64,000 bases of DNA from a virus. This document shows positions 1-26,000 of the stretch, one piece after another. Numbering within the stretch: the first letter of the stretch is position 1; every line of letters begins with the position of its first letter. A program made the position numbers and the translations under genes. Below the pieces are notes generated by a model. It had not been told where the DNA came from and made no database searches. It saw only the letters and a list, made by a program, of their open reading frames with translations. The DNA is taken from the IMG/VR virus record IMGVR_UViG_3300038620_000086, positions 1 through 64,000 of that record; one strand, 5' to 3'.

Positions 1-290
1 TCGATCACTATCATAATGAAGCTCTACATATTCTGCTCCTGAAGATTCGACGGTTCCAGCCGCTGTATAAGTATAGCCAGGTCTACTTTGAAGGGGACGG
101 CTGGATTTACCAACATCTACTTTCCCTCCAGAGACAACTGCAATTTGATCTTCAATGCCATATTCTTTGGCAAGCTTTCTTAGTTGTACACCGACACTTT
201 TTAGAGCTTGTTCTTCCGGAATACCCCCAGGAGTCGTTGCGCCACTTTCTCCTTTTGACCCACTATGTCCAATACCTATAACTAACTTAC
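1..290 (-). other. N-acetylmuramoyl-L-alanine amidase (Amidase_3) domain within the giant ORF, truncated by the window edge
   Basis: KLVIGIGHSGSKGESGATTPGGIPEEQALKSVGVQLRKLAKEYG...YVELHYDSDR matches the Amidase_3 pattern IxIDxGHGG...GA...E...L...ISIHAD, with the Zn ligands H, E, H. Confidence 0.8.
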
Positions 291-9200: not shown

Positions 9201-11568
9201 TGATCGTTCCATCTTGAGTAATAGCAACGTGAGGTTCTCTACCAACTTCACGTTGAAGAGTTGCTAGGGCACTTTCGACCTTATCTTTGTTTCCGGCGGA
9301 TACAGTTGTTATAACCCCTCCCAGTACATTTTCTATAACGTGCGACTGGAACCGACGAGCAATTCCTTGGAGTTTAACTAAGCTGAGGGAACTAGATTCG
9401 CTAGCAGTTCCTCCCTTAACGTCAAGACCAACATAGAGATTCTGAATTATCCCCATCAAGGGGTTTTTGCTTTCTCGGACGATTTGCCGGTTAAGTTCGT
9501 CCTCCATATGAGCTGAGGCTAGAGACAAACCTCTGAACAAACCGTAGCTTAAGAAAGAGGCAGATATAGCAGACACCGTCTCGGCTATTCCACCAAGACC
9601 TTTTTCAAATGGACCTGCGGGAAGCTCTTCAGGGTCATAATATTGACGGTCAGCAAATCCAGGAGAAGACTCGTAAAAACCCTCCCTCCTTCGCTGTTGT
9701 TCTTGGTAGTAGTAGTGAGCTGTGGCACGATCAAGTAGGTGTCCTAACGTTGCCACTCCTCCTTCTAAAAAAGTTTCATCTTTCTCGAAGGCGGGGGAAC
9801 GAAGTACATTAGGAAAAGATTGGTGAAGAAAACGATTCAATCTTTCTTTAAATGGAACTCGGTTAAGATCCTCATTTAATTGCTCATCTTCAAAAGGAGT
9901 GACCTTAGGTAGCGTTGGTGCCCCTCGAAACTGACTATAAAATGACGCTGGTAGCTCAGAAGGAATTTTTACTTCTTCTTTCAGATAGTGCCTAGAACCT
10001 TCAACCGGTTTAGGAAGAGCGCGGATCGTTTTAACGCTGTAGACTGAAGGGTGATCATACTCCCCGCTTCCATAGTCAACCGAATCAACATCACCAATTT
10101 CGTTGGATCCTGACTTAATAGTGGTTGGTACAGACCTATCTAATCTTTCTACTGAAACGTTATCTAAAGAGTCTAGCTTTCCTATTAAGTTCTGATGCTC
10201 CCCGTAAGTTTGCTGTACAATGGACATTAGTTTCCGAATGCTCTTAGGATCCATCTCTGTGGTAATCCTCAATGCCATTTCTTCGTGAGATTCTCCAACA
10301 AACCGACGGGTTGTTAGATAAGCAACATCAGTTCCTTTCTCGTTAATGTCTTCAACGAAATAAAGGTTGTAGTGAGGTGTATCAGTCTTGGTACGATCTG
10401 GTTTTAGGAATTCTGCTCCGGCTCTTTCTAGGCGACTAACGATCCTTTGTGTAGCCTCTTCGGGATCAACGTCTTTAGTTGCAATAGTAACGTCAGAACC
10501 AGTTCTTTCCTTAGCCTCTAGTAGCCCGACTATTTCCCGAAAATGCTCTTTTGCTTGTAGGTCTTTCTTAGATGGATCTTTACGATCCTCCATCTCATTA
10601 TACTGGAAGGACGCAGTCGCAATTGTTACGTCTCCACTGGAACGCCTAATGTCCTCTTTTAGAGACTCAAATATGACGTTTCCGCCGCCTTTTACAATAT
10701 CACCTTCATAAGACCTGTCCCTTTTCCCTTCAGCTTCCCTTTCGATCTGATTGTAATATTCTTCTACTTCTTTATGAACCTTAGGATGGGTTGTGTGGTA
10801 ATATATATCAGTTGTTTGCTTCGCCATCGACTCACCTTTTTGGTTAGTTCCAAATGGTTGAGTTACAAAGAAGGTATGTTCTTCTCCTCCTTTTTCACCG
10901 ATGATAAACTTGGAGTGAAGCAAACGAGGCTGAGATCCCCCTCCTTCGGTCAGTTCTCTCCCTTCGTAAGGTTTAAAGTTGCCGCCTTTACTATTCTGAA
11001 ACTCTATGGCATTGCGTTTAACATTAACCTCAGTTGGTTCAAAGTTAGTAACGTCAACAATGACCTCGGCGTCGGATGACCGTAGAAAGTCCGCCTCTGT
11101 TTGTGTTCCAAAGATCGACGTCGTCCACCAATTTCTAATAGAACCAAATGGTCCAATTTTCTGCTCCTTCTTACTTTGAGATTCAAAACTATATTCCACC
11201 TTTGTTTTAGCTCTAGGATCAGCAATAAACTGAACAGCTTTTATATTCTCAAGATCACCTGTTAACTCTTTTACCTTCTCCGGAGTAGTGATCCCAGCTT
11301 CGACATGAGAGGCACTTCCCTCAAACTTTAGATTAGACCTCCATTGTTGGTCTTCAACATGGGAAAACCTCTTTCCCAATGCAACCCGAATTTCTTGATC
11401 CGAGTTCCGAGCTTGACTTGCCACTCTAGAGATTAATTTTTCTGTGTAGTGGCTTTCCTTAGAAAGAGATATATTAACTGTCTCGCCAGAAGACAAGATG
11501 TCATCCTCTTGTTCTGTATACTGGCGATACCATTGTGGAGCCTTAGTTTCAAATCCAACGGGAGCCAT
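1..11568 (-). CDS. Giant tape-measure-like protein (>3856 aa, 3' end outside window) with N-terminal PLD-like region and C-proximal lambda lysozyme, polysaccharide deacetylase and Amidase_3 domains
   Basis: Hand translation from ATG at 11568 (MAPVGFETKAPQWYRQY...), overlapping the end of the upstream gene. The same frame is open wherever spot-checked down to base 1, and the ORF track lists no terminated ORF in this frame. Gly/Ala-rich hydrophobic segments typical of tape measures: IGAALLAGASVLAVTALSGGLLAPLAAGIAGGFIGGHFG at ~2590-2705 and GTAIGGGIAGTLAVAAVGALALPAAAAIGLGIAAGVAIGS at ~1960-2080. Confidence 0.8.
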   Translation of the reverse strand, partial: MAPVGFETKAPQWYRQYTEQEDDILSSGETVNISLSKESHYTEKLISRVASQARNSDQEIRVALGKRFSHVEDQQWRSNLKFEGSASHVEAGITTPEKVKELTGDLENIKAVQFIADPRAKTKVEYSFESQSKKEQKIGPFGSIRNWWTTSIFGTQTEADFLRSSDAEVIVDVTNFEPTEVNVKRNAIEFQNSKGGNFKPYEGRELTEGGGSQPRLLHSKFIIGEKGGEEHTFFVTQPFGTNQKGESMAKQTTDIYYHTTHPKVHKEVEEYYNQIEREAEGKRDRSYEGDIVKGGGNVIFESLKEDIRRSSGDVTIATASFQYNEMEDRKDPSKKDLQAKEHFREIVGLLEAKERTGSDVTIATKDVDPEEATQRIVSRLERAGAEFLKPDRTKTDTPHYNLYFVEDINEKGTDVAYLTTRRFVGESHEEMALRITTEMDPKSIRKLMSIVQQTYGEHQNLIGKLDSLDNVSVERLDRSVPTTIKSGSNEIGDVDSVDYGSGEYDHPSVYSVKTIRALPKPVEGSRHYLKEEVKIPSELPASFYSQFRGAPTLPKVTPFEDEQLNEDLNRVPFKERLNRFLHQSFPNVLRSPAFEKDETFLEGGVATLGHLLDRATAHYYYQEQQRRREGFYESSPGFADRQYYDPEELPAGPFEKGLGGIAETVSAISASFLSYGLFRGLSLASAHMEDELNRQIVRESKNPLMGIIQNLYVGLDVKGGTASESSSLSLVKLQGIARRFQSHVIENVLGGVITTVSAGNKDKVESALATLQREVGREPHVAITQDGTIRVSGVGSRRIQEMAKRWEDVSQNVPANLLYWIPAVREAANVDMSREASLADLIGRGLEDLLMTYEQIYMQIGRFISDPDQEIKQLEKLYRTSKEVSELDREITQLSIEESVNQGRPVTDLKKLYQYDISPVARYSGLKKEFSFRSNYFRAKSESPASGGVDVKTDPQKKLLGVPIRQARRTMLGVGAIFGADYLFSYGILGDGGLSLLSYFQSPWDFEEGTFQSPVRDTSHIRKIEGDLHPLITSFLGLTGGLSAGWLFPEFSTAETNPFDYSLGRAEKQKLDVYEEAWRVAQEQDISIGEALSEIQRGGRPGTPRYKSAGELSSNQWARNYYSDLSLVRSNVKSAGRARFNILAASIGFAVSTTATRLASSTIAAIWNWSKDSGFESNELSYLAAQRINISPLPETLEEKAANDFARKYKEKLLKTTESQYKTSFSITPQFTTPVFQIGWTNRSIPEEELKTFTFGFQLFPLLGGGIMPTFPVAQRLTVRPEAERDIDSFSEWLGSVGYRAGTLPSEVFAGVRDSDYENLLMQVGTYTALGGIANQIIPSAAKESLVGRGVRSANRLVSDFGASVLSAPALMLDTTKKAVAGVTPDSSGWRSVGRFFTRRGPSIRGAAPFLLSWIASSAFLDRKAGITTSRFTGEGLEEENKTARVSATATLTAIYGSALSGVFGGYNVFSRPEIIDDAFFRKGIKVPESNRFYHRIQKGVTSRYEGTRTSFSKAPTGATYNARFVGRHGVAASRIAATYWTGQLLGAIFDAEELFAGDETGLSAGFQIWMGGYERPDTVGELQDREKVKSILSRGYRGGIGDRLLQFTDKFIGQLDIFNILSDSGAYADDPNIFLNFFSYGQTLRNTSGDITSTGYTQFQGSSADLSYTIRSLSFSGLKQTDKEIIKQLLKGDKELSPSEVVSRVRTLSPRGSSIDYTQTRGSEAAQATSSSLSRALAIRSFYAEHLSNKRPTTIAVERYLQENKMKELGISPGNFVPINISIGNRFYGLGQTIEKAYEKYIGNRGTAYYTKIEGLQELTNQFVAATGSSGAPRAGIRRGKFEGLTGVGSAPAAPLLMFTRSAIGTITAASLAFSLVMSAGRLTASGITAWENRRGKDIQRQIEGIASHVEKFLVKHQPSISWDQSGGRGTPRIALLSRDRYMVKIPGLTNEPGQFDKVGLGYGMEAKEQFFQAYEEFLSRSTNEIFASSFDNRRLEGMHGTSLSVRFRELYKQVRSGTIDEEEFYDKVRDHLGRYKKSLKGNLLETLNKEIPVGDKQTITLYQALTTDQRAERFIDDIIEGRNRQTLIDQIIQSLEQSLRQNVSPDIAVESARYEIATRLEETSQLIPSQAMDEEFTERFAVERSIEEQRKWARRRAGSRPPQGEPKTEVRPQDLPKVLSEGVNFMNRAFYVQQGYGLLEGASLYAHSFRDDNFVQKQASQKLFWKETGFLASEFLLVQAFKRGMGLGYSGAGLLTIASYLGYNQIRKNNQWFKNKESDIYNWVSSNFGFLPRAIGSVVNTVAESPSYLPFVDDDFNLFEDVTGPWIAEQYRKARESENDILQFFSQIFLPASSSLYNRMRSSAKKTAWGYQRHFYGDTSQYWKQQQQRRRRKTAQYGRSLDIIHSGLYGFPTTVRGRAVKEKYFRGDRVADNFSYRRNYPISQTLRNALEVRQRMSDLYAHGYVYRLNNVDDDKGLNEIFSIALSDVQALELQRGRGGFIGQLYSEVKDLAWNKITRPLLNRTVKPLWDKYGNKVGGDLARLKERIDRFIGDKTTPIRNLGNSIKGAIGKFFTGIGRGGFGDPAPLAEEPNLYQLRKLNRLFRVTRYGGKELLLGGLDKQDLLGYIKDLPGDLGARLYGEDLSRELYGTGARKHLGRALFGSRLLLESLSNTLGSGARGILHRSGRIAAGVSLQSLKIGIGSLVNPLSGSLIAGLLSGLSIATSGFSLPAILGAGYAGIMGTAFAKNMGESYKSLGNLLSPKFLRAKFWQKRRKGKVQMLLDEGASFDEIRARKPFVSKFDQLHPFYSYHPSRIPLNQVNTSDLQVKPLEEPILRPSSRSKSLPTIVQITQEIGRPTSISDARPSSITRALSSVNRGLRKLSDVGLPDRILQGLGKAARWTAKGFSKVAPDVASFGIDLYFINRARRRVKQLDDRASREAHYRKAYGDLYGNIGAALLAGASVLAVTALSGGLLAPLAAGIAGGFIGGHFGRQYGEQRGSQIYDRGADTDRLSDGIAGWGSALGSLGMGFGATLIELRRRRRQSGGDYGNPASKESRIGSSSTATDPEFDEGSRRVVSNTNRSRTSNIPDIPEHLPENIDDTENIGLRRPGRIGKVAKIARSAGFVGDFIEASLGVYGLYEYHQGMKSDNRKRAIKGGRLTGTAIGGGIAGTLAVAAVGALALPAAAAIGLGIAAGVAIGSAGSYIGAKIGESAAKVSYRNRNKPNFLTRYFQSFSWSGEGIEDYEVKSMSSRGQVRQLENYEEKTRQARQSLQKFAESLSSTVSDLFSVGETGRERKPSENLGVLGRIKEFASNVVEGLTNAAKTVGRVVGRATSKAYQTAKDWLSEWVPSGGGDKPIVKTKGIHPNVRAVADMVSLAEGTWNESGYRTMFGGRTYQGDLSEGHPNVKIRAAGFNSEAFGKYQWMWETAQRFGLDENISPKAQDRAFVQYLKEEGLYELAKQGNYRELLTGRSGRKIAGIWAGLPGDPYGQGEAYTREELVRFARERERFYKGERQRQYQATRKREKPVNLTRENIDRRAEEKMEDGTIALTFDDGPSPQYTEKVLDVLEKHDATATFFIVGKRAKKHPELVKQIVEEGHEIGIHSYSHRPMSKLSKEEQIKEIRRTRKVIRGIVGEDVDINWFRAPYGRQNQETLKAANEQGLSTALWTVDTRDYLKATSTKEILDRLSNAEGEIVLLHDAAEANPEYAQQNIDLARLDKSRKDTVRALDQFLSKSDLETQTMSEAVPRPESKGGKLVIGIGHSGSKGESGATTPGGIPEEQALKSVGVQLRKLAKEYGIEDQIAVVSGGKVDVGKSSRPLQSRPGYTYTAAGTVESSGAEYVELHYDSDR
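330..915 (-). other. CE4/NodB polysaccharide (peptidoglycan GlcNAc) deacetylase domain within the giant ORF
   Basis: All five CE4 motifs are present: IALTFDDGP, GHEIGIHSYSH, FRAPYG, WTVDTRDY and IVLLHD, plus ATFFIVG. Confidence 0.92.
1040..1465 (-). other. Lambda R-type lysozyme / lytic transglycosylase domain within the giant ORF
   Basis: NVRAVADMVSLAEGT...GYRTMFGG...HP...SEAFGKYQW...ISPKAQDRA...IWAGLPGDPYGQ parallels lambda R (AFLDMLAWSEGT...AGRYQ...FSPKSQD...IWASLPGAGYGQ); the catalytic Glu is retained. Confidence 0.88.
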
Positions 11569-12367
11569 ATAGACTATCGGTTTGGTCGCAAAGCAAAAGC
11601 TGGTCTAAAGAAACGGCTGGTTGATATTCTAAGTCAAAAGGATAGTCCGGCGGCGGAGACCAATCGGGCAAAAAGTTGAAGTAGTTCCAGCCTACTGACC
11701 ATCGTAACGTATTTAGGGGGTAGCTTCTTGCCGCGATCGATGCTAACCCGTAGAAGTCTCCAGGGAGGGGGATGGGAGCATAGGGCGGGTAGGGAACTAA
11801 AAGCCTGGTGATTCGGTGAATAGGAGTTTCTGGAACGACCCAATACTGAGTATCAATTGGCTCTCTTGGGTTGTCTTTGTGATAATATTCAACTTTATAG
11901 CGGTCAATCGGACTTGGGTGAGTCAGTACGCTTGGTGCTAGCTCCAACTTAAGATCACCATCTGCTGGAATAACTATGTTTCTCTTTTCTGGCAGGGGTT
12001 GTTCATAACCAAAGTAAGTGCTGTTTGGAGAGTAAATAGTGAGAAAATAGTCTGAGTGGTTAAACTTAGAGTCGGCTTCAGAGTTCTCAACTTTTATTGT
12101 CACCTCTTCGTAGCCTTCATCTAATAAGATGCTAGGAAGAGCAAATGTAATAGGGTCTAATCTTTTATACTCGAAAAGAGATCCAGAGAAGTCTTCAACG
12201 CCCTTCAAAACCTCGTTTTGTTCTTTCCATACTAAAGTAAACTCATCCTCATTTTCTAACTGTGGGATGCGAAAAATTAGACTTACATCTGGTTCTACTG
12301 TTAGTTCTATGGGAGATTCAACCTCAATAGAAGACTGGAACTTGATCCTAATAGGGGTCTTGTCCAA
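11549..12367 (-). CDS. Hypothetical protein (272 aa) between terminase and tape-measure-like gene
   Basis: ORF overlaps both neighbours; no motif recognised; TTG start is uncertain. Confidence 0.6.
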   Translation of the reverse strand: MDKTPIRIKFQSSIEVESPIELTVEPDVSLIFRIPQLENEDEFTLVWKEQNEVLKGVEDFSGSLFEYKRLDPITFALPSILLDEGYEEVTIKVENSEADSKFNHSDYFLTIYSPNSTYFGYEQPLPEKRNIVIPADGDLKLELAPSVLTHPSPIDRYKVEYYHKDNPREPIDTQYWVVPETPIHRITRLLVPYPPYAPIPLPGDFYGLASIAARSYPLNTLRWSVGWNYFNFLPDWSPPPDYPFDLEYQPAVSLDQLLLCDQTDSLYGSRWI

Positions 12368-14135
12368 AATATCCTCCTTTTCTTCGTCTTTGTAAGTAGT
12401 CTAATCGGGACTTTCCTCTTTCTAAGAAAGAGGGATCAGATCCTAAGAGTGAGGGGTCAAAGTTTTTATTGTCGGGCTGGTCTTCAGATTTCACCGACGA
12501 TGCAGATACAACCCTTGGAATGTCATCTGAGTTCTCATCTCCAGTTAAATGCCAGACCACTGAAGCGATCCCATCTGCTAAGTCTTTACTCCCATTCTTC
12601 GGGTGGTCGATTCGTGTATTGTTAATCAACTCTAGCTGGTTAAGCTCATCTTTAGCCAGTTCTTTAACCGGCGAATCCTTAGGTAAAATGACCCTACCCT
12701 CATTCAGCATCGTTTGAAGCTGTTCGTAGATCATTAGCTGAAACTTGCCGCCGAAAAACTTTGCCTCAGCGTTAATGCCCCACTGTCTAATGCGTTGGAT
12801 AGTCTCGGCATTCTGGTGATGGTCAGACGTCACCTTAAAGATTGGTCGATGTTGGTGAATGTCAAATAAACATTCCTGAACGTTACTAATAGATACTTGA
12901 TAGCCTGGGTCGGGTTGCCATGCCATAAGGACATCAATGGTAACGACTCTCAAGCCCTCTTCATTTCTCTCGGCATGACCAACTACTAAAGAGTAGGCAT
13001 CTCGAACAACAGCAGGGTCAATATGGGCAATAGAAGGGGTATCAGATTCAGTAACCTGTTTAATCCTTTTCTTAATTAGACCGCCCTTAGGCTCTTCGTC
13101 AGAATAGGTTACTTTAGAACGACCCCGGAAGCTCAACCTAATGCTGTCAGGGTTTAAAAAGCGGGTTTGTGGGGTAATCCGCTTTCCTTCAAACTCCAGA
13201 GCTGCTTTTAAAGGGTTCAGAGAATACTCACTTCGAACAACCGGGTTATCTCTAGCAGCGTGTTTAGGGTTGATATCCCAACTTTTTAGGCGAAAGCCAA
13301 TAAAAGAGCTTTCATCTTCGGCAACCTTTTCATAAAGTTGTTCGATAGCATCTCCTGGTTCCCAAGCCGAACTTATAGCAACCCTCTTCGCTTCTGACCC
13401 AAACGTCATACCACTCAAACCTACGTTGCTCCAAAGGTTCTGAGCGTTGCTATTCCCCTCAGAGTCAACGGCGAACCTAGCCACCTCGTCCATCACCATG
13501 CAGATAACGTTCTGTCCGACTTGGCTAGAGCTTTCGCTGTTTCCAGGATAAATATGGACATTTTTCTCTTCATGGTCAATTGACTCTTTTCTTACAAAAA
13601 CTTCACCTCTATCTATCATCCGTCTTAGTGGGCGGACTAGAGGGATCAAACCTCTAACATAAGAAAAGATCGTTTGCTTCGTCTGAGTAGCTGTCGTCGC
13701 GATCGCTAACAGTGAAATAGGAGAGTTCCCAGCTATACCATAGTGCCCCTGTGGGTTATCCATCATAACTAGCTTTAGGAATTCATAAGCCAATATAATG
13801 GAAGCAAGATTACTTTTACCTCCACGCCTCCCTGCTTCTAAAATGAGTCCCTGATATTCTTTGTCAGGATCCATTGGATCCCAAGTCGTTTTCTGATCGT
13901 AGCGCCACCTCTCAAGTATTTCTCTATCACCTTTATCTAGCTTGGCTCCATAAAGCACTTTTAGAACTAACAACTGTTCCTTACAAAGCTCAATCCCCCA
14001 TTTCTCCTGATCAATCTCATTTTCGACGAAATTAACAATATCGGTATTTAAACCCCAAGAAGAGGATGACTTGATACTAAAGGCTAAATCTTGGAAGAAG
14101 TTCGACTCGTCTATTGATTCCTGCTGTTTTGCCAT
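12348..14135 (-). CDS. terL: Terminase large subunit
   Basis: Walker A LEAGRRGGKS, Walker B MVMDEVARF, motif III AISSAW, RNase H-like nuclease AHIDPA...DAY and C-terminal DHPKNGSKDLADG. Confidence 0.92.
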   Translation of the reverse strand: MAKQQESIDESNFFQDLAFSIKSSSSWGLNTDIVNFVENEIDQEKWGIELCKEQLLVLKVLYGAKLDKGDREILERWRYDQKTTWDPMDPDKEYQGLILEAGRRGGKSNLASIILAYEFLKLVMMDNPQGHYGIAGNSPISLLAIATTATQTKQTIFSYVRGLIPLVRPLRRMIDRGEVFVRKESIDHEEKNVHIYPGNSESSSQVGQNVICMVMDEVARFAVDSEGNSNAQNLWSNVGLSGMTFGSEAKRVAISSAWEPGDAIEQLYEKVAEDESSFIGFRLKSWDINPKHAARDNPVVRSEYSLNPLKAALEFEGKRITPQTRFLNPDSIRLSFRGRSKVTYSDEEPKGGLIKKRIKQVTESDTPSIAHIDPAVVRDAYSLVVGHAERNEEGLRVVTIDVLMAWQPDPGYQVSISNVQECLFDIHQHRPIFKVTSDHHQNAETIQRIRQWGINAEAKFFGGKFQLMIYEQLQTMLNEGRVILPKDSPVKELAKDELNQLELINNTRIDHPKNGSKDLADGIASVVWHLTGDENSDDIPRVVSASSVKSEDQPDNKNFDPSLLGSDPSFLERGKSRLDYLQRRRKGGYFGQDPY

Positions 14136-15035: not shown

Positions 15036-15038
15036 AAT

Positions 15039-15090: not shown

Positions 15091-15107
15091 GTTTCAATCT
15101 TTTTTCT

Positions 15108-15998: not shown

Positions 15999-16379
15999 TT
16001 ATGTCTCCTTTATTTCCAAGTCATATGCTTTAACAACAAGGGACTTCCCAGGTGATACCCTTTTTCCGGAGTCATTTACCACAGCACCCCAATAGGTAGC
16101 TTTGTCTCCTTTGGGGTCTTGCCACAATACGAAATAACGGACGTTGACGTCTTTGTTGCCATTATTAACTAAGGTTAACTCAGTCTTATTATAGGAAGAT
16201 TCACCATCGGTATCCCAATCTGAGAACTCTATAAAGCTTCCTTTATCCCACTCGACTGGTGTTGGCTGAGTTGACTCTGGGTCAGATCCTGGATCCTTTT
16301 CATAAAAGGCAATGTAAACAGGATTGTCAACGAAAACGTTGGTTTGAAGTCGGTTTTGGAATCCGTCTGTTTTTGGCAT
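15999..16379 (-). CDS. Small virion structural protein (fibre adaptor-like), paralogue of 42614..43015
   Basis: Pattern YIAFYEKDPGSDPE...VRYFVLWQDP..G...V.PG.SL.V....LEIKE is shared with 42614..43015 and is common in phage tail/baseplate regions. Confidence 0.6.
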   Translation of the reverse strand: MPKTDGFQNRLQTNVFVDNPVYIAFYEKDPGSDPESTQPTPVEWDKGSFIEFSDWDTDGESSYNKTELTLVNNGNKDVNVRYFVLWQDPKGDKATYWGAVVNDSGKRVSPGKSLVVKAYDLEIKET

Positions 16380-16385
16380 AGTTAG

Positions 16386-16661
16386 TTATAAAGGCGATAG
16401 GTAGCAATAAATCTGACCAGCATTCATGGAAGATCCATTTAGAATCTTCTTCACTGCGATTGGATAGATACGACCTGTTTCAACAGGAAGAGTACGAGTT
16501 TTACCACTGAAGGTTTCAAATTCGAGGCTTCCTCCAGATGTTACCTCGATGCCCATTACCATCGGCGGGAGGTTTTGGTTGAATCCTACCTCATTCAATG
16601 GGAAAACATCGTAAAAAGGAGAAGTATTTCGAGAGATTTGGGATGAGTAGTTATTTACCAT
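16386..16661 (-). CDS. Head-spike base protein-like (resembles the RcGTA Rcc01079 family)
   Basis: 91 aa; GIEVTSGGSLEFETFSGKTRTLPVETGRIYPIAVKKILNGSS resembles the family pattern LYVGxGGxLxV...G...TF..V..G.ILP..V.RV..TGT. Confidence 0.55.
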   Translation of the reverse strand: MVNNYSSQISRNTSPFYDVFPLNEVGFNQNLPPMVMGIEVTSGGSLEFETFSGKTRTLPVETGRIYPIAVKKILNGSSMNAGQIYCYLSPL

Positions 16662-16668
16662 GCTAAGA

Positions 16669-16685
16669 TGACGAACGGTTCGTCA
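16669..16685. promoter_or_regulatory. 17-bp palindrome TGACGAAC-G-GTTCGTCA, copy 1 (intergenic)
   Basis: Perfect 8-bp inverted repeat filling most of the 30-bp gap between the cpcA-like gene and the spike-base gene; identical copy at 41177. Confidence 0.6.
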
Positions 16686-16691
16686 GAGTAT

Positions 16692-18506
16692 CTACAAACT
16701 AGATCGGATATATTCAATAAATTCAACCGCCTTATCTTTCTGATCGGCTTGTGTAACAGTAAAAGAAACAGAGGTGTCAGAAGGCATTGTCTCCGTCTCA
16801 TCGGGAAGAAAATAATCCTGAGGGTTATTCTCTAACTCCTCACGAAGCCATCTTAAAGCTTCTTTATACCATTTGGGGTCAAGCCCAAACGTTTCATTAA
16901 CCTCCTTTAGCTCATCTAAGAACAGCTTATCAAGAAGACCGGTGTCATTGGCAACAAGTCCATAAGTTAAGTACCGAACATAATATTCGATATCACGGAT
17001 ACATTTACTTATCTGCGTTCCATTGTAGGAAAAAGGTTCTCTTTGGAACGGACTGTCTTCAGGCGGACGGTTGTCAGGAATCATGACAGTCTCATATCCC
17101 TCCGTCTTCTTAACTGCTTGTCCTCCTTTATCTGACTCTAGTATTTGGAGGATCATATCTAAATAGACGTGGACGGCACTAACTACATCCATACAACTAT
17201 CAGCCGCAGGAGTGATGTCATATTTAGACAGGTCGATGGGAGAATTGTCTATTATGGCATCTCCCTGAATAACCTTAACTAAACGACTACGAAAGCCTTC
17301 TTTACCATCTCCTCCGTTAAAGGCTTTTTTATAGTTCTCGACTATCTCCTCGTAACTTGGAGTACCACTCTTATTAGCTTGGTCAAGCAAAGCCTGTCTA
17401 GATTGAACCGCATAGTCATGAACTCTATCATTGCCGGTATGTTTTAGATTGTAGGCGATCGCGTCTAGGAAAAACTTAAGATCCCGCGGGTACCTAGAAG
17501 GGTCATAAGTGGAGGTATCAGAGGTGACGACTGGAGGAGTCGCTATCCAACCTTTTAGCCCTACGTTACCGTTTCCATCATCGTAAGTGTTACTATCACT
17601 TTCGGTTATTAACTTGGCTGCATCAGCTAAACGACCTTCACCAATGCCCTGGTCTCCATAAGGATTAGAACGTCTGGCTAAACTTCCTGCCCCTTTGTCT
17701 ATAACGTCTAATATGAGATCAAGAAAAGTATCAGCAGTAGCTATAACACTTACGAAGCGGTCACCATAGGTTATATCTGGATCCTGCTTAGCCGATCCGT
17801 CTAAGACCATACGAAGGCGGTCACGGACTCCCTCATCTGTATTCGATCCATTGCTCGTTCCGTTAATGGCAAGCTCATAGTTAATAACAATCGTTGAAAA
17901 GCTAGGACCGCTCTCATTACTTTGTTTCTGCAACGCATTTCTAGAGATCATGGCATAGTCATAAACTTGACTATTCCCACCCTCTACGATGTTGTACGCG
18001 ATCGCTTCCAAGAAGAATTCAATGTCGCGGATACACTTCTCTTGGATGCTTGAGAGGTCATCTCTATTAACAACTGAGGGAGCACTGGCAATCCAGTTCT
18101 TATTGGTCAGAATGAGATTCCGAGCATCTTCTTTTCGATTGCGATGCTTATCTCCTACAAGCTCATAGAATCCGACTTTTCTGGGTTCATCAGGACGATC
18201 AAACTGAACACCAAAGATTTCTTGTCCACCGTAGTAAGGGTTTCCAGAAAGGGTTCTTGGAAAAGTAGAGTAAACACTGTTAGTTGCCTGCTCTACTAAA
18301 TGGCTACTATGATTTGATATTGATTCAGCAGCCATAAGAGCAGCTAACCCATCTTTATAAGACCATTGGTCGTTAGCGGTGGGATCACTTGAGGAAGAGG
18401 ACGAGTTGAACCGTTTGTTGGCAGTTATTAGATCATCATCCCTTATCTCTCTTAAATTTTGGCTATCGATTAATAGCGCTACTTCAGTAAGCTTTGATAA
18501 AGTCAT
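16692..18506 (-). CDS. Phycocyanin alpha-like phycobiliprotein (604 aa) with a ~400-aa insertion of two internal helical repeats
   Basis: N-part LTEVALLIDSQ...AAESISNHSSHLVEQATNSVYSTFP and C-part KCIRDIEYYVRYLTYGLVANDTGLLDKLFLDELKEVNETFGLDPKWYKEALRWL...AVEFIEYIRSSL are collinear with CpcA (LTEAVAAADSQ...AANAVYSKFP...[54 protein letters not shown]). The alpha-84 Cys equivalent is Cys502. Confidence 0.85.
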   Translation of the reverse strand: MTLSKLTEVALLIDSQNLREIRDDDLITANKRFNSSSSSSDPTANDQWSYKDGLAALMAAESISNHSSHLVEQATNSVYSTFPRTLSGNPYYGGQEIFGVQFDRPDEPRKVGFYELVGDKHRNRKEDARNLILTNKNWIASAPSVVNRDDLSSIQEKCIRDIEFFLEAIAYNIVEGGNSQVYDYAMISRNALQKQSNESGPSFSTIVINYELAINGTSNGSNTDEGVRDRLRMVLDGSAKQDPDITYGDRFVSVIATADTFLDLILDVIDKGAGSLARRSNPYGDQGIGEGRLADAAKLITESDSNTYDDGNGNVGLKGWIATPPVVTSDTSTYDPSRYPRDLKFFLDAIAYNLKHTGNDRVHDYAVQSRQALLDQANKSGTPSYEEIVENYKKAFNGGDGKEGFRSRLVKVIQGDAIIDNSPIDLSKYDITPAADSCMDVVSAVHVYLDMILQILESDKGGQAVKKTEGYETVMIPDNRPPEDSPFQREPFSYNGTQISKCIRDIEYYVRYLTYGLVANDTGLLDKLFLDELKEVNETFGLDPKWYKEALRWLREELENNPQDYFLPDETETMPSDTSVSFTVTQADQKDKAVEFIEYIRSSL

Positions 18507-19102
18507 ACTCCGTCTCGGGCAATGTCAAAGTAGGTTTTCAACTCTGAATAGAGATCAGAACAGTTGGGAAGAGAGCCACCATATTCACTAGCAGGACTAA
18601 CTGACCATTTATAAGGATCCTCCCAACCGCTAGGATTGTCTCCTTTTTCGTGGTCAAGGTATTTTATTGCTTCCTCCCACATATTCTCTACACTCTCTGC
18701 TACATACTCTCTTGGGGTTCCCAAAGATTTATAGGTTTCTTTTAAGCCGTCAAGACATCTAATGGTCAAGATACTGGGATCTCCGCACAGAAAGCTAAGG
18801 GTAACATACTTCAAGAGAAAGTCCATATCCCGAATACAAGCTTGATTACGCCGGTTCGGGTAGGCATTTCCTCCTGGTAGCACTAAATGAGGACGGTCTC
18901 TAAATAGCTTTCTAGCTGCATTTAAGACAATGTCATCAGTCTTATCCCTTAACCGACGAACAATATCAAATCGGCGGTTTTTCTCCCTCATAATCTCTTT
19001 AAGCTTAGAAAAGACTTCAGGCTTTATGTACTGCCCCCTCTGGTCAGCTTGCATAACAGCCCTCGTATAAGCATCATGAATAAAATCTCTAGGTTCAGAC
19101 AT
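18503..19102 (-). CDS. cpcB: Phycocyanin beta-like phycobiliprotein (199 aa)
   Basis: DAYTRAVMQADQRGQY, NAARKLF, PGGNAYPNRRNQACIRDM, GDPSILTIRCLDGLKETYKSLGTP and CSDLYSELKTYFD align with CpcB. Cys89 (beta82/84), Cys181 (beta153/155) and Asn79 (methylated Asn72) are kept; the phycoerythrin Cys50/61 pair is absent. Confidence 0.92.
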   Translation of the reverse strand: MSEPRDFIHDAYTRAVMQADQRGQYIKPEVFSKLKEIMREKNRRFDIVRRLRDKTDDIVLNAARKLFRDRPHLVLPGGNAYPNRRNQACIRDMDFLLKYVTLSFLCGDPSILTIRCLDGLKETYKSLGTPREYVAESVENMWEEAIKYLDHEKGDNPSGWEDPYKWSVSPASEYGGSLPNCSDLYSELKTYFDIARDGV

Positions 19103-19829
19103 TTATTCTAAAACTCCCTTCCTGTAGCTGTTGTTCAAACATTTTCTTGACTTCCTCAGGTAAGTCACAACGTTGGGAAAGATCATCCAGGCTTTCATAA
19201 TCTCCTTTTTCCCTCTCCTCTATAATTCGGGCAGCCAACGTTGAGTCTACGTTTGGGAAACGATCATAGCTTAGTTGAGCAGAATCCACGAGGTTCAGAG
19301 TCGCAACACTATATTTTCGGTTCCAGAACTCTTCATAGGATATTTCAGGGGCTAACAGTGACATCAACTGCCTAAGAGGAACTTTCCTTGAACTAAGTAT
19401 CAAAGAACTAGCCTTTTCTCTATCAGCGGGGTCAGGAATTATCTCGGTAAATCGCTGCCAATATCCCACAATAGCTTTCAACAGGTCATATGAATTTTTA
19501 TAGGGATATGTTCCATCCCAGCGTTGGTAGTTTTGAAGATTCTTAGAAGAAAACTGACTCTTCACTAAGTTCCTATCGTCAGAATCCAGATTGTATAAAG
19601 CCCCTTTTGCTTTGAAAATGAGCTTAGTTACCCAACAAACTGATCGGTGAGCAGACTCTGGAAAGTAGATGCACCAACCATAAGAAGACTCGTCTAGAAG
19701 GTGGGGAAAATAGCCAAATACCTTTTTAGAACGAACTCCTTGGTCAAAAGGCTCTGGGAAGGTTATTCTAAGGCATTCTTGGTTCAGTAAAGATGCCGTC
19801 TTTCCATCAGGTACAACATAATATAACAT
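19095..19829 (-). CDS. Protein with C-terminal helix-hairpin-helix (ComEA/PsbU-like) domain
   Basis: C-terminus LNLVDSAQLSYDRFPNVDSTLAARIIEEREKGDYESLDDL fits HhH_3; N-terminal 170 aa unrecognised. Confidence 0.6.
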   Translation of the reverse strand: MLYYVVPDGKTASLLNQECLRITFPEPFDQGVRSKKVFGYFPHLLDESSYGWCIYFPESAHRSVCWVTKLIFKAKGALYNLDSDDRNLVKSQFSSKNLQNYQRWDGTYPYKNSYDLLKAIVGYWQRFTEIIPDPADREKASSLILSSRKVPLRQLMSLLAPEISYEEFWNRKYSVATLNLVDSAQLSYDRFPNVDSTLAARIIEEREKGDYESLDDLSQRCDLPEEVKKMFEQQLQEGSFRINV

Positions 19830-19832
19830 AAG

Positions 19833-20045
19833 CTACTGGACTACTTTAACAACGCCGTTGGAGTCCTGATACCAATCACCGGGGACTAATCCACCCGTTT
19901 TAGCCGCAGAGTCATCAGCGTATTGAGGAAGGCTAAGACTAATTGGACTGCCATCCTCAATTTCTTGTAATCCCTCTACACTACCATCATCGCTGAGCTT
20001 TATTGTGATTAGCCGCATTGTACTACTGGGATTGAATGGGTCCAA
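19833..20045 (-). CDS. Small fibre-associated protein (start may be the internal Met at 20018)
   Basis: LPQYADDSAAKTGGLVPGDWYQDSNGVVKVV resembles the LPxYADxxAAxxGGLxxGxxY...V motif common at phage fibre termini. Confidence 0.5.
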   Translation of the reverse strand: MDPFNPSSTMRLITIKLSDDGSVEGLQEIEDGSPISLSLPQYADDSAAKTGGLVPGDWYQDSNGVVKVVQ

Positions 20046-23000
20046 TGTCTATTCTACCGTTTGTAAGTCGGCTGTTACCAATCATATCCTTCTGTAGAAC
20101 TTCAGGATCTATGTCGAACTGGTTAGAATTGGACACTCCACCGTGGATCCCATCGATGTAAGAATATACATCACCTGGTATAAGATTAGGATCACCAGAC
20201 TCGATCAAGGGACTTTCTTCTTTCGGCTTGAGAATATTACCATACTGAGACCCACCGGAAAATAGGTAATAGCTTTTATCTTCTTTCTCTATAGAAATTG
20301 TTTCTTCCTCTAAAAGACTAGAAAGGTTACCGACTTCAATAGGAGAGACTGGAGTTTCAATAGTGGGATCTCCACGTTCGTACACAAACTCTGTAGACAT
20401 ATTATCATCCTCCTCGTAAAAGTTAGGAGCAATTAATCTCACAGTCTCATCCGAACTTAATTGAAGATTCTGGCTAGTTGCTGTATTTCCGATATAGAAA
20501 GTATGTCGGTCGGTTCTAAACGTTCCTTTCATCGACTCCGTACCTGCAAATAAGCAATTGAAGATGAAGTTACTCGAATCACTATCATAATGATGACCTA
20601 AAGATACTTTGTTTGGAAATAAACAGTTATAGAGGAAGAGAGCACAATCGTTAAGTCCCCCGGCAATATCCCCACTCTCAATGTAAGAGTTGATTAGAAT
20701 TAAATAGGATCTAGATCCTACAAAAAACCCTGCATTACGCCTGCCACCAATACTATCAGGTATTCGACAATTTATTAAGACTACAATGCTATCTTCTCCA
20801 AAGTTAGTGATTCCTGTTCCTTTACTATAACTACCATCATTACTTCTACCCTCTTTAAGAGTAAGGTTTTCGAGGAATAGACTAGACTCTCCTGGAGACG
20901 TTCCCCGAAAGATGTGGAAATCTCTAACTTCGGAAGAGCGCTCAATAGTCGCACCAAACTTTTTAGGTGCAACTATCTTAATTCCTTGTTTTACTTCTAT
21001 TTCTCTCTCAACTATTATGTGCTCTGCAACAACCAGAATAGTTGACATATTCTCTGCATTCTCTACAACCTGTTTTAGTTGTCTCCCATTAAAAGCAACG
21101 TGATCAAAGTCAATTCCGAGAGCAGAAGCTAGAAGATCCCTTACTCGAAAATTTCGCCCCATCAACAGAAACTCTGGGACTTGATCAGTAGGAGTTCTAG
21201 TGTTTAATCCGTAAAGTTGAGAGAAGTAATCTTGGAGAAATAGTGGTTGATTAGGAATTCTATAGTCTGTAGAGAGAATTCCATATATACTTCCTCGGAA
21301 GGAAGTACCTACATTAGGGGTAAACTGGTTCTTAACAGATTCAGCCCCTCTAGCATCAATTTCATAGCGATCCTTATTAACTATTAGAGCAGGTCGCCTA
21401 ATATCAGCAGTATCAATGCTAAATAGGTTGTCATTCGGCTTTGGAAATTCTACTGTTCTTCTCCAAACTCGTTCGTCGTTGAGATGGAGTTTTCTAACTT
21501 CACTCGGCCAATAGTCGAATCCAAAACTTGTCGAATCTAGTATATAAAGCTCATTTGATATAGAAGCTAACTTATAATAGTTACTATCTGGTTTCCTACC
21601 ATCTTGTGTGCGGACTTTACGCCGAGAACCAAATAATCCATAGTCCTCCCAATAACCTTCTTTTTGAGGATTGTCTTTATCAGGTTTGTATTTCTGAAGG
21701 ATTCCTAGATCCTCTACCTCCGGCGTTCTGTTCACAGAAAGCCGATAAAGAGATCCGTTATGGAATTCTAAGATCCTACCTCCTAAAGGTTCTTCCCCAA
21801 TATTAGTTTCTACTTCAGTGAATCCAGATGAAGGGTCTGTCGAATAGTATAGAAAAGGACTCTGAGGACCCCATTCGACTCCATATCTACCTCTATCTTC
21901 TCCGCTTGGCTGTATCCAAAGTTGAGGTTCTCCTTTTTCTAGTTCGGGAACATCACCAATAGCAAATGATAGGTATTCTACGCCGGTATCATTATTTCTT
22001 TCTATAGAGAAGACTTCGTTCTTGTTCTCATCATACAACCTGTACATCCTCGTATCTGAGTTGTATTGAAGGAAGTAGATATACCCCTTATAGACAACTG
22101 CACCAATAATGCCTTTATTGAGATTATCTAGGCTATATAACTCCATTAGGTCATGATTGATCCCATTCCACCCTCTTTCATCTCTATCAGCAGTTAGAAG
22201 CGCAAATTCTAAGTCATTAGAACGCTTCCATACATAATATATTCTAGTCCCCTCCGTATTTTTAAAGAAGTGATCTCTTACGAGCCAAAATACAACGGGA
22301 TACTGACCATCTATATCTGGAGTTTGGTCAGCATAATAAAGTTTAGGATTATAGAGATTGAAATAGTTGTCTACAAACTGCCCATAGTGACTATCTTCTT
22401 CTTCCTCATTATCCTCTCCTGGGTAATAGAATATATCAAGCTTTAGAAGATTTCCTCCCTGGAAGAAAAGCAATCCAGCTTTATCTATATCCCAACGGTA
22501 ATATCGAACTGCCGCTCCAAAGCTAAATTTAGGTCCTTCATTCTGAATAATGGCATCTTGTACGCCTTCATCATGGTTGTAATATTTGATTCTACAGTTA
22601 GTTCTATGCTGGTGACTCTCTGTAAAGTACAAGTGACCCTTCCAGGGAATTAAGTTATTATGTTTGACATGACTAAAGCTACCAGCAGCATTGAATGGAA
22701 TTTGGACTAGTTGTTCACTATTGTTTTGGCGACTACTTGAGTTCCATCTCCAAAGCTCTGTATCATAGTTATTATCAACAAGAATATAAATCTCCTCACC
22801 ATTCCCAGAACCATCCTCAAATACAGTAATATAGTGAGGTTCTCTATTTCCAGAAAAACTAGCTCTCTGTTGGAAATTAGTACCAGATGGATCATCCATA
22901 GAGTATAACCTCTGCTCACTTGCAGAAACAGTCCAAATTTCATTATCAGAGGTGCGGACAGAAGAAACAGGTCTATCTATATAAGGATGCTCTGGTTGTT

Positions 23001-26000
23001 CATAATACCAACCTCCAGCATAACCCCCATGCAAAATTCTTAACTTATCTTCACTCTCCCCGTAATAAGCTATATATTCCCACTGATTGTTCCTACCCTC
23101 TGAGTTAAAGTTATTAGGGTTCACTTCACTGAACCGATAGATACCTTTTCCATAGTTTCCGTCACCTTTTTCATCGCTCTTTCCCTGTTCGAGATGTTCA
23201 TTAAAACTGTCTCCTCCATAATACCGCCACATTTTAATATCGGTTTCTTCATCCCAGATGCCTATCCAGCAGTCCTGATTAGCTAAGATGTCAGATATAT
23301 GTCCCATGCCAGCAGGTTTATTTGCTCTTACAAAGAATCCTTGACCAATACCCCACTGAGGTGTCGGCATATGATAAAGCTCCTGGGTTGCCCTATCAAG
23401 AGCGACCAGTCCTATATCAGCGTGTACGATAACAGGGTCAAATAGGTCTGTCCCTCGCTCCAAAGCCCAACTTTCTCCATCAGAAGTCGAGAAGATAAAC
23501 CCATCGTTAGAAGCTGCATAAAGTTTATTGTTAAAACCACTTATCTCAAAAGAAGCTACTCGTCTATAGTTACCTCTTGGTAATTCAGATCCTTCTACGG
23601 GATATCTTTTGGTTGCCAGGTTTAAGGCTATACTCCAGTGAATACCGTCAAAATAGAGAACATAGGAAGCAGATTTTATAAGATTATCTTCTTGGTTAGA
23701 CCCAACAAAAAGAGTGCCCTTAAACTCTTTCAGAGGCTCACCGATTTGGTAGGTAGGAACAAATCTGTCTCCAGCAGGTGTATATCCCCGACCCCACCAA
23801 GCTTCTTCAGACCAAGCAAAGTAAAGGTCTCCATCATGATTATGACATAGTGTATAGAAGATGTAATTGGGGTTTATACCTTTTTCTGTCCTTTCAACGT
23901 CTTCTGGGGGATCGATAACTTGTATACGATAAGGATGATCGACTTCATATCTATCCTTAGTAAACCATTCTGTATCTGTTTTATTATCTATTGCATATAC
24001 ATAGTTACGACCAACAACATATAGTCTTTCATCTTCTTTTTCACCGGCAGTAGCAAAGTTTATCGGGTATTCTCCAGGAAAAGAATCCTCTGAAAAGTTG
24101 TTTTCGTTAAGTTCATAGTCATACCGGAATACCTTGTTGCTCCAACTGCAAGCTATATGAAGAATCTGAGTTAGTGGTGAAAAGTAAAGACCTCTAGGAG
24201 ACGAGTTTTCTCCCAGTTGGCTAGAATCAAACTCTACTCTCCAATCTTCTGGATCCATATCACCGTTACTAGTGATAGCTCCATCATAACGCCATATTTC
24301 GTCGCTACCAGAGCAAGAAACAAGCAAATAAGTATTACCGCCCTCACTTACTTCTACAATTTCAGAGGGCTTATTGCCAACCTGTACAAAACTCCAACCA
24401 TCAGTTGGATTATACCGACCTACTTCATCAGAGCCTTGAAAAGTAACATATAAAGATTCAGCACCATTATCTGTAAAAACTATCATTCTATGAGGATGTA
24501 GATGATCAGTCCACGTAAAGTCCTTATTTGGTCCCTCAATGACAGAAACTTTGTTGCTTCGACTGTAGCAGCAGTAAAGATCCCCATCATACTTCATAAG
24601 GTCTAAAGGTCTGTCACCATTATTCTCAGTATGCACTTTCCATTTCTTTGGAGAGCCTTCATATCGCCAGACCTGACTTTTATCTGCTAAAGTCAGATAG
24701 AGTTGCCCATTGTATTTATAGAGGCAAGTTGGTTTGTCCTTTGTTCCTGTCATAGAGAAGAATCCATTAACTTCTCCTCTCCAAGTAAGCTCTAAAGTTT
24801 CATCTTCGTAGTCTAAAGAGTAGGGCTCAGTATCGATTATTCTTTGAATAGATCGGTCGGAGTTATCAATATCTAATCCTAGTGTCAACAGGTCTGACCG
24901 GAACACACTATTGTCTTGAGCGGGCGGTAAGTTAAATTCCTTAGAGGTTCCTTGCAGAGGGTCTTGAGGTTGAAGGTAGGTAGTTAGGTCACCAGTCTGG
25001 TTTTGTGTAGCGTTGCTCCAACCAGATATACTATCTTCAAAGGTTTCTTTTAAAAGGAGCCTTTGAGCCCCATCACTAATTTCTAAGTTGTCTATCCCAA
25101 ACGTTCTTCCGGGGTCAGACTTAATGCTGACTTGAAAGACCTGCTGATAGGGGAATTCAATAGATATCCGGTAGTAGTCCTCCTCAACTTTTTCTATGAG
25201 CCATTCTTTTTCTCCGAGACTTCCGGAAGATGTAGAAGTGATATTTAATAGTTCAGAGTAAATTATGGGGTCACTTCCATCAAGCTCTAGGACAAATCTT
25301 GTATCAGCCCAATTTCCCAGAAGATAAACATCAAACTTAAGTTCAACTGATAACTGAAGATCTAAGGTTTGGGTTTCCTCAAAGTTGATCCGGTTTGTGT
25401 CTAAATAGCTAGGTTTTATGTCTTGGTCTTTTTGAGTCAGGATCGCCGATGATTTTATGTCCTGCCAGCGTTCGATTCCGGAAGTCGATAGAATTACACT
25501 GCTAGCTGATGTGGCATTAAACCAGTTTTTAAGTGAATCTTCAAGGCTGAATAGGTTCCATGATGTATCTATGAAAGCCGAAGATAGATTATCTACACAT
25601 GACCCGAGGTCTAGTTGGTCAGCACTGGCTGAAAATATAACCCTTACCAGTATCCGCTCCTGGTAACAGAGAACAAAGTTCTCCACCTTGGCTACAACTG
25701 CTGAAAGCTCTGAGGAGTAATATAAATCCTCTGCTATTCCATATTTAGGAGAGATGGTAATGCTGTCGAGTAGCTTTCCATTGTCGAAAATAAGAACCTC
25801 ATTTCTAAGAAGTTGAGAGCTAATAGAGGGTTTGGTTAAACAGTATAAATAGCCGTCCCTCATCGAAACATCTATTCCGATAGGAACACGATCAGCAGCT
25901 TTGTTTGTGCCTCCCAAAGACTCAATTGGATAACGGCTAATAGGAAACTCTCTAACCAGATTGCCTTTCAGGGAAAATTCCGCGATTGTTTGCCTGGTTA

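Follow-up and report, generated by a model that had tools for sequence, protein, structure and literature searches.

Cyanophages are known to encode enzymes for making and attaching phycobilisome pigments or for assisting in their removal, but not the apoproteins that bind these pigments. In the accessible sections of PMC3037559, the roles of the phage genes pcyA and pebS "remain a mystery" and that of cpeT is "unresolved", while HO, PcyA and CpeT are, according to a part of PMC10452541, confined among cyanophages to myoviruses, as is PebS save for one podovirus. With regard to the pigment-binding proteins themselves, the excerpted text of PMC10151467 gives CXRD as the bilin-binding motif of phycobiliproteins and reports that related globins attach bilins without lyases. 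Here, we analyzed a window of 64,000 nucleotides, bases 1-64000 of the linear 72,840-bp virus record IMGVR_UViG_3300038620_000086 from IMG/VR (CheckV completeness 38%), in which two genes at positions 16,692 to 19,102 encode a CpcB-like protein of 199 amino acids (aa) and a CpcA-like protein of 604 aa, called the beta-like and the alpha-like protein in the following. Our results suggest that a light-harvesting host protein has been turned into a part of the virus particle.

Both proteins are matched by the phycobiliprotein model PF00502, the check that the original prediction of this locus had proposed: each clears the gathering cut-off of 22.2 bits for the whole protein, and a six-frame search of the complete record with this model found four places, all of which lie inside the two open reading frames (ORFs). 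The genes follow each other on the minus strand in the host cpcBA order, and the stop of the beta-like and the start of the alpha-like gene share an ATGA overlap (18503-18506), just as had been read at the outset. In the Protein Data Bank (PDB), the beta-like protein is best matched by C-phycocyanin beta (E 9.8e-43, residues 10-151 on 4-145), followed by weaker matches to phycoerythrin beta (~1e-28) and allophycocyanin beta (~1e-27); its identity to CpcB is ~50%. The CpcB equivalog model TIGR01339 tops six phycobiliprotein models with 160.2 bits, compared to 123.4 for CpeB and 109.4 for ApcB, but remains under its own cut-off of 279.3. For the alpha-like protein, PDB alignment places residues 50-86 on CpcA residues 31-67 and residues 490-556 on CpcA residues 72-138, and the best of the six models is the CpcA equivalog TIGR01338 with 97.1 bits in two stretches, again under the cut-off (269.45). 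Together with the tree stems given below, these scores bear out the strong divergence that had been claimed for the pair.

The residues required for bilin attachment in phycocyanin are retained. The original prediction had named beta Cys89 and Cys181, alpha Cys502 and the asparagine of a PGGN motif, and PDB alignments located all of them at the expected sites; alpha K501-C502-x-R504-D505 falls on the CpcA K-C-x-R-D motif, the cysteine of which is conventionally numbered Cys84. When the query is aligned with its homologues, none of the attachment-site residues varies in any of the 9 beta rows or 12 alpha rows. The CpcB counterpart of beta Asn79, Asn72, is the methylation site. A lineage-specific feature of the beta-like protein is a stretch of ~27 extra residues between helix G and Cys181.

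Homologues of both proteins were found in a large protein collection, namely 8 for the beta-like (59-70% identity, 199-202 aa) and 11 for the alpha-like protein (46-55% identity, 594-616 aa), and they already bear automatic PF00502 labels there, without comment. Beta and alpha homologues co-occur on contigs of 193,383, 26,500, 8,264, 4,551 and 3,669 bases, the largest of which is in line with the full size that CheckV implies for the present phage. The phylogeny that had been proposed as a check was built as a maximum-likelihood (ML) tree of 62 rows, comprising 9 phage beta sequences, the C-terminal parts of 12 phage alpha sequences, and CpcB/A, CpeB/A and ApcA/B/F references from five named cyanobacterial genomes, which we picked ourselves among 80 loci. 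Phage beta groups with CpcB (support 95) and the C-terminal part of phage alpha with CpcA (99), and each phage family is monophyletic (100) on a stem of 1.36 (beta) or 1.88 (alpha) changes per column; all support values are from the Shimodaira-Hasegawa-like approximate likelihood ratio test (SH-aLRT) of a "quick" ML method. With its long branches, the tree is unsafe for finer placement, an example being a position beside an Okeania CpcB that has a support of 92%. The simplest reading of these sequences is that a host cpcBA operon was captured and then diverged strongly.

Searches beyond this collection returned no further members. Neither blastn with the locus nor tblastn with the beta-like protein gave a match among 50,697 phage records, and the scans of IMG/VR, which the original prediction had suggested for the same gene order, confirmed no relative either with a single protein or with the family alignment (A1). 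The scan of genome contigs with the family alignment (A2), in which two family-specific patterns were applied to 185,579 species genomes, likewise confirmed no relative. The scan of metagenome contigs (A2) returned 16 loci: L006, L009 and L020, which were inspected, are ordinary cyanobacterial cpcBA operons, and in the remaining 13 the matches are confined to the CpcA-like ends.

The second gene had originally been described as a diverged CpcA. That it is CpcA-like holds, while a nested two-domain architecture, and with it a link to cyanomyovirus fibres, had been overlooked. As modelled with AlphaFold from a 12-row alignment (mean predicted local distance difference test score, pLDDT, 67), the alpha-like protein is a CpcA fold that is split at the B-E loop by ~380 residues, which form two tandem phycobiliprotein-fold domains, hereafter R1 and R2. 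The model range 26..604 aligned with alpha chains at Z 14.5-15.8 over 144-147 residues with ~29% identity, and the CpcA fold thus re-forms from both ends of the protein. The range 111/115..270 matched beta chains at Z ~14 over 137-142 residues with a root mean square deviation (rmsd) of 2.6-3.1, and R1 therefore makes up a complete phycobiliprotein globin fold on its own. Each R domain has its own C-x-R-D position at the Cys82/84 site and a second site before the last helix, at the place of CpcB Cys153, and all four cysteines are present in 11 of the 12 family rows. An extra beta-hairpin occupies residues 570-584. A Foldseek search of the PDB with the whole 604-aa model gave no match at E <= 0.001, and VIA-align of the same candidates yielded clear domain matches; in the ESM Atlas, whose own model of the protein has a pLDDT of 0.42, all TM-scores stayed below 0.32. 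The best fold matches in BFVD were tail and structural proteins of Synechococcus phages, nine of them at E <= 1e-3.

We considered whether the two genes might owe their position to an assembly chimera or to host DNA misjoined into a viral contig, given that the record is a single metagenomic contig that is an estimated 38% complete. The stretch is present in three tidal-flat metagenome runs. In run X1, which is possibly the record's own source, a separately built Logan contig of 14,196 bases spans 14859-23000 with zero differences, and run X2, which belongs to a different sample and study, yielded contigs that include portions of the two genes and extend across the junction between them (18426-18803). 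A chimera is thus contradicted because contigs from two samples carry the locus. The guanine-plus-cytosine (GC) content of both genes, 0.42, is the same as that of the flanks, the genes overlap their neighbours, homologous pairs lie together on the five contigs mentioned above, and the family was not found in the species genomes searched, all of which makes an artefact hardly credible and disposes of the assembly problem that had been raised as a possible refutation. Run X2 additionally provides a comparison of sequences. Its alpha-like gene differs from that in the window at 10 positions, 9 of which are synonymous; the remaining one, at window position 17491, turns the TAC of codon 339 into TGC, and this replacement, Y339C, restores the C-x-R-D cysteine of R2. 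Purifying selection on the pair is indicated by these aligned sequences because the bilin-site residues are invariant and 9 of the 10 differences are synonymous.

The nested domains connect the locus to a large family of phage proteins. The insert is matched by phrog_4527, annotated "short tail fiber protein", and also by phrog_5342, and when residues 108-472 were used as a phmmer query on 1.84 billion representatives, 134 proteins were retrieved at E <= 1e-3, i.e. the protein itself and 133 others. The others range in length from 445 to 6382 aa, with 114 above 1,200 aa, and contain up to 20 matched stretches. All four R proteins scanned against PHROGs match tail-fibre or virion-structural families (E 1e-50 to 1e-199), and among seven scanned against Pfam, four pass the whole-protein cut-off of PF00502, two are just below and one has no match. 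Consistent with these searches, tblastn with one R protein (P0073) hit 327 phage records, which, tallied by the first word of the record name, comprise 253 Synechococcus, 59 Cyanophage, 14 Prochlorococcus and 1 Marine; the genes that are hit carry the annotations short tail fibre, tail protein, virion structural protein or baseplate wedge. The insert of the alpha-like protein shows the features of this R domain (PHROGs 4527 and 5342), namely the sequence match, the phycobiliprotein-like fold and, in R1, C158-x-R-D.

A profile built from the matches covers 1331 domain copies in the 133 proteins. Across the ~1265 copies in which the motif is covered, the cysteine, arginine and aspartate of C-x-R-D are found in 96%, 94% and 99%, respectively, and a downstream aspartate in 98%. 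The second, beta153-like cysteine is not conserved family-wide, being present in 114 of 313 copies. Only 41 of 921 first-pass matches extend over at least 120 of the 177 profile positions, and the conserved R core therefore consists of ~60 residues around helix E. To illustrate the fold outside the present locus, we modelled P0134, a protein of 790 aa with four repeats, together with 11 relatives (pLDDT 64): residues 266-415 superimposed on beta-phycobiliproteins at Z 15-17 (rmsd 2.0-2.3, 125-137 residues), and all 50 fold matches listed are phycobiliprotein or "bacterial fluorescent protein" entries. When the R profile was compared directly with the beta-like family by hhalign, the C-x-R-D columns were aligned at E 6e-4 with a probability of 29%; given this weak score, the homology between R domains and phycobiliproteins rests mainly on the fold and the PF00502 matches. 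A Pfam search of a segment of S-RSM4 with a weak R copy gave no match. Several short fibre-type R proteins (P0134, P0076, P0147 and others) share a conserved C-terminal domain of ~110 residues, which is also encoded in three frames of P-SSM2 (query residues 679-789), a phage without R domains; this fibre end module is therefore separable from the R repeats.

It is conceivable that the phycobiliprotein fold serves here as a bilin-free structural or spacer module, a stable helical block in which C-x-R-D supports folding or binds another ligand. The free divergence of the R domain outside its ~60-residue core, the patchy occurrence of the second cysteine and the loss of two of the four R-domain cysteines in the present copy would fit such a role, and we know of no report of coloured cyanophage particles, for which no specific search was made. 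The residues that are kept at 94-99% are, on the other hand, exactly the bilin-contacting triad of phycobiliproteins as given in the available part of PMC10151467. In the pair, no variation occurs at the canonical beta82, beta153 and alpha84 sites, and the sole non-synonymous difference in X2 sits on a C-x-R-D cysteine. To our knowledge, no structural role of the triad in apo-phycobiliproteins has been described. We therefore regard a bilin-free module as distinctly unlikely.

The prediction of a heterodimer, a further check that had been suggested for the pair, gave an interface score (ipSAE) of 0.70 for the alpha-like and beta-like proteins compared to 0.00 for the best control; 58 of 80 solved complexes and 2 of 110 mismatched pairs attain this mark. 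Between runs, at least 65% of the contacts agree, and the pLDDT of the partner is at least 71. In the predicted interface, which comprises residues 1-67 of the alpha-like protein, the N-terminal helices (X-Y) of each chain pack on the globin part of its partner, an arrangement known from phycocyanin. Lineage-specific insertions are also brought into contact in the complex, i.e. beta residues 166-175 with alpha residues 572-577. According to this prediction, the two proteins form an alpha-beta protomer.

The main alternative, close to the phycobilisome decoy that the original prediction had considered, is that the pair acts inside the infected cell as a late auxiliary factor and is not packaged. 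A phycocyanin-like unit could join or cap the host rods, where the bulky R1-R2 moiety would block rod growth or uncouple energy transfer; in a variant of this explanation, the pair would sequester bilins or lyases of the host. The ~50% identity to CpcB, the retained alpha-beta interface, Asn72 and attachment residues, and the host gene order are all compatible with it, and Ma-LMM01, a relative of this lineage, is known to interfere with phycobilisomes through NblA. Moreover, we found no gene for CpeT, CpeS, a bilin reductase or a phycobilisome linker (PF00427) in the 72.8-kb record, itself 38% complete, which extends to the entire record what the original prediction had stated for the window and would make the proteins dependent on host machinery within the cell. 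Arguing in the other direction, both partners are phage-encoded, sit on long stems and touch each other through co-varying insertions, which fits a self-contained pair better, and their scores are far under the equivalog cut-offs. The inserted domains, furthermore, come from a family otherwise seen in fibre and virion proteins, and the genes lie within a translationally coupled structural array. On balance, an intracellular role appears less probable, although it deserves to be taken seriously.

Our preferred, tentative reading, which we hold with somewhat less than even confidence, is that the pair forms a bilin-binding, phycocyanin-derived heterodimer belonging to the fibre apparatus of the virion; the analysis shows the homology, the fold and architecture, the conservation, the genomic setting and a predicted heterodimer, while bilin loading, virion location and any role of light are the inferred parts. 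A cyanomyovirus with a distant relationship to the Ma-LMM01 group would have taken up the cpcBA operon of a host and reshaped it. Pairing of the two encoded proteins would still use the canonical phycocyanin interface, and the alpha subunit would have acquired R1 and R2, tandem beta-type phycobiliprotein folds, at its B-E loop; domains of the same family make up giant tail-fibre and virion proteins of marine T4-like cyanophages. Up to five putative bilin sites in this phage, and seven in its relatives, would then be provided by C-x-R-D motifs and cysteines of the beta-153 type, and bilins might be attached there covalently by host lyases or autocatalytically. The complex would be made late, along with the structural genes, and would join or decorate the fibre or baseplate apparatus. 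The proposal of bilin loading is based on CXRD, the motif with which phycobiliproteins bind bilins, and on the ability of related globins to attach bilins by themselves. The idea of a pigmented virion gains indirect support because two domains of the alpha-like protein belong to a family otherwise found in giant fibre and virion proteins, and because this family retains C-x-R-D almost without exception.

Several observations weigh against a pigmented virion component. Host-derived auxiliary genes of cyanophages can lie among structural genes, so that position by itself is weak evidence. Neither protein has a recognisable fibre-anchoring domain, a domain shared with virion proteins is no proof of a shared location, and a search of the present record with the hidden Markov model (HMM) of the R domain found nothing outside the 604-aa ORF, the phage's own giant proteins, including that of 4129 aa, being devoid of R. 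In the present copy, each R domain has lost one cysteine, with phenylalanine at the second site of R1 and Y339 at the first site of R2. The complex prediction may reflect likeness to, or memory of, solved phycocyanins. As for the genomic setting, the 244-aa ORF upstream of the pair has no homologue besides itself in the large protein collection, and no RNA run contains the stretch.

The features of the locus and of its surroundings are compiled in Table 1. All large ORFs of the record are on the minus strand, and the content of the contig is structural throughout, with terL, three sheath-like genes, baseplate wedge proteins, a tail fibre, the major capsid protein and two giant proteins; around the pair, the genes form a tight, co-oriented array with overlaps. 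The original prediction had placed the pair between fibre genes, a gene resembling a head-spike base, and terL. The assignment of terL proved solid (phrog_17415), whereas, for the small ORFs next to the pair, the labels of fibre and head spike rest on matches below threshold (Gp80, 19 bits at a cut-off of 27; Mtd_N, 19 bits at a cut-off of 26.3). The C-terminus of the 244-aa ORF gave sub-threshold helix-hairpin-helix matches, including PsbU at E 0.007. The ORF at the start of the window may, judging from its deacetylase match, encode a fibre-borne enzyme that modifies a surface glycan. In the region 14000-20500, we counted 14 promoter-like sequences against 12.1 expected and 4 terminator-like sequences against 5.6 expected, i.e. 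no excess. The three sheath-like genes are unusually many for a single tail module.

Table 1 Features of the phycocyanin-like locus and its neighbourhood in the 64,000-nucleotide window.
Feature	Coordinates	Strand	Evidence or remark
CpcA-like (alpha-like) gene, 604 aa	16692..18506	-	PF00502 E 5.4e-27, 95.1 bits, 3 stretches
Outer CpcA fold, N-terminal part, residues 1-110, helices X, Y, A, B	18177..18506	-	PDB and structural alignment
R1, first nested beta-phycobiliprotein-fold domain, residues ~111-290	17637..18176	-	fold; phrog_4527 E 3.3e-11
R1 C158-x-R160-D161	18024..18035	-	C158 on PF00502 position 76, as C502
R2, second nested domain, residues ~291-472	17091..17636	-	40% identity with R1 across 154 residues (E 1e-28)
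R2 Y339-x-R341-D342	17481..17492	-	Cys at 339 in 11 of 12 family rows
R2 Cys438	17193..17195	-	
Outer CpcA fold, C-terminal part, residues 473-604, helices E to H	16692..17090	-	PDB and structural alignment
Alpha K501-C502-x-R504-D505	16992..17003	-	PDB alignment; invariant in 12 of 12 rows
CpcB-like (beta-like) gene, 199 aa	18503..19102	-	PF00502 E 4.5e-41, 140.8 bits
Beta C89-I-R91-D92, equivalent to CpcB Cys82-x-Arg84-Asp85	18827..18838	-	aligned to CpcB MAACLRD; invariant in 9 of 9 rows
Beta Cys181, equivalent to CpcB Cys153	18560..18562	-	second phmmer stretch, LPNCSDLYSE on GDCS..SE; invariant in 9 of 9 rows
Beta Asn79 in PGGNAY, equivalent to CpcB Asn72	18866..18868	-	PDB alignment; invariant in 9 of 9 rows
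ORF of 244 aa directly upstream of the beta-like gene	19095..19829	-	8-nt overlap with the beta-like start
Giant protein, 4129 aa, upstream in the same array as the pair	20023..32412	-	only weak WD40/beta-propeller Pfam matches
Terminase large subunit (terL)	12348..14135	-	phrog_17415 E 3.2e-20; nearest to Ma-LMM01 group phages, 31.6% identity
Giant ORF, >3856 aa, runs off the window start	1..11568	-	PF01522 polysaccharide deacetylase E 1.7e-40, residues 3547-3669
Tail-sheath-like ORF, 830 aa	40122..42614	-	sheath PHROG E 1.1e-47
Tail-sheath-like ORF, 1256 aa	50036..53806	-	sheath PHROG E 1.3e-15
Tail-sheath-like ORF, 1058 aa	56372..59548	-	sheath PHROG E 1.5e-20

With respect to the identity of the phage, the nearest relatives of terL and capsid are Microcystis phages of the Ma-LMM01 group and a Microcoleus phage (28-32% identity), and 10 of 10 capsid matches are cyanophages. 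On the basis of these two proteins, the phage is a distant Ma-LMM01-like cyanomyovirus of another lineage than the T4-like phages.

The R domains also point to a wider and more speculative idea, namely that many cyanomyovirus tail fibres are biliproteins that carry covalent bilins on tandem C-x-R-D domains, the pair in the window being their least-derived form, still recognisable as cpcBA. Its background is the light-dependent adsorption of S-PM2 and P-HM1/2, which is independent of host photosynthesis according to the available sections of PMC6628666; the adsorption phenotypes given here are taken from the same sections. S-PM2 (NC_006820), with R domains in frames of 3792 and 3340 aa, and P-HM2 (NC_015284), with R domains in frames of 4458 and 3682 aa, both encode CpeT (PF06206) and require light for adsorption. 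P-SSM2 (NC_006883) and P-SSP7 (NC_006882) have neither R domains nor CpeT and adsorb in the dark; for P-SSM2, the R profile was also run over all six frames of the complete genome, together with positive controls, and R was absent. Ma-LMM01 (NC_008562) contains no R domain, CpeT or bilin reductase (PF05996). R domain and CpeT thus go together in 5 of 5 genomes, and the 4 of 4 with described adsorption fit the light pattern, a comparison that, with five related genomes, has the weight of an anecdote and not of a test.

The cpeT gene of S-PM2 (163952-164479) is located 1.45 kb upstream of the R-bearing "short tail fiber protein" (3779 aa, 165928-177267) on the same strand, both lying between gp5 and gp12, and in P-HM2 cpeT is found among tail-fibre genes after gp5. 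The S-PM2 record places 16 tRNA features, all with a single locus tag, within the coding sequence of the 3779-aa fibre, apparently an annotation error. Speaking against the idea in its wider form, the occurrence of the bilin reductase does not follow that of the R domain, since P-SSM2 and P-HM2 encode the reductase and S-PM2 and P-SSP7 lack it. Overall, we consider the generalisation to cyanomyovirus fibres unlikely. If true, the light-dependent adsorption of S-PM2 and P-HM2 could be due to fibres that act as a light sensor carried by the phage, and these fibres could be the real clients of the phage lyase CpeT and perhaps of the bilin-synthesis genes.

The pair shows that capture by cyanophages has extended to apoprotein genes. 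No phage with phycobiliprotein subunits had been described to the knowledge of the original prediction, and this agrees with the phage-record searches above and with a full-text search of some 8.1 million open papers and 0.36 million preprints (subscription journals and supplements lying outside it), which found neither phage-encoded phycobiliprotein subunits nor phage-fibre repeats with the phycobiliprotein fold. The available parts of PMC10151467, PMC11480375 and PMC12481020 mention neither of the two. Through the nested domains, host phycocyanin is linked to an extensive family of repeats in giant fibre proteins of marine cyanomyoviruses, a connection undescribed in the literature searched. 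If the C-x-R-D sites bind bilins, virus particles would carry chromophores, and adsorption that occurs only in the light as well as the purpose of phage CpeT and bilin-synthesis genes would become directly testable questions. If nothing is bound, the locus would still clearly exemplify the recruitment of a light-harvesting fold as a building block of the virion.

Compared with known systems, the pair is closest to C-phycocyanin CpcA/CpcB, with which it shares the fold, the beta-alpha order, the predicted interface, the equivalents of Cys82, Cys153, Asn72 and the alpha K-C-x-R-D motif, and the placement in the tree. It differs from C-phycocyanin in scoring below the equivalog cut-offs, in the 27-residue insertion of the beta-like protein, in the ~380 nested residues and the C-terminal hairpin of the alpha-like protein, and in the lack of linker genes nearby. 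The split alpha-like protein also resembles ApcE, in which an alpha-type phycobiliprotein domain is interrupted between helices B and E by the PB-loop. That loop is short and non-globular, whereas the insert of the alpha-like protein consists of two whole phycobiliprotein-fold domains. The giant fibre and virion genes of T4-like cyanophages (PHROGs 4527, 5342, 701 and 18802), for example the 3779-aa short tail fiber protein of S-PM2 and SRSM4_151 of S-RSM4, have the R domain in common with the locus, with C-x-R-D followed by a GGN loop. In these giants of 1,000-6,400 aa, R is repeated up to ~20 times and combined with fibre-type N- and C-terminal domains; in the present phage, which belongs to another lineage, two R copies reside inside a true CpcA fold that has a CpcB-like partner. 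The BBAGs (Rockwell et al. 2023, PMC10151467, available in part) are likewise phycobiliprotein paralogues outside the phycobilisome, some with CXRD and with lyase-free bilin attachment, but they represent a deeper, cellular lineage of single-domain proteins, while the phage pair falls inside the phycocyanin clade. Finally, the cyanophage genes ho1, pcyA, pebS, cpeT and nblA are, in the partially available descriptions, host-derived, belong to the same pathway and occur on cyanomyoviruses as the pair does, but the 72.8-kb fragment contains none of them. They encode enzymes or a degradation adaptor; here, it is the apoprotein itself that has been taken up by the phage.

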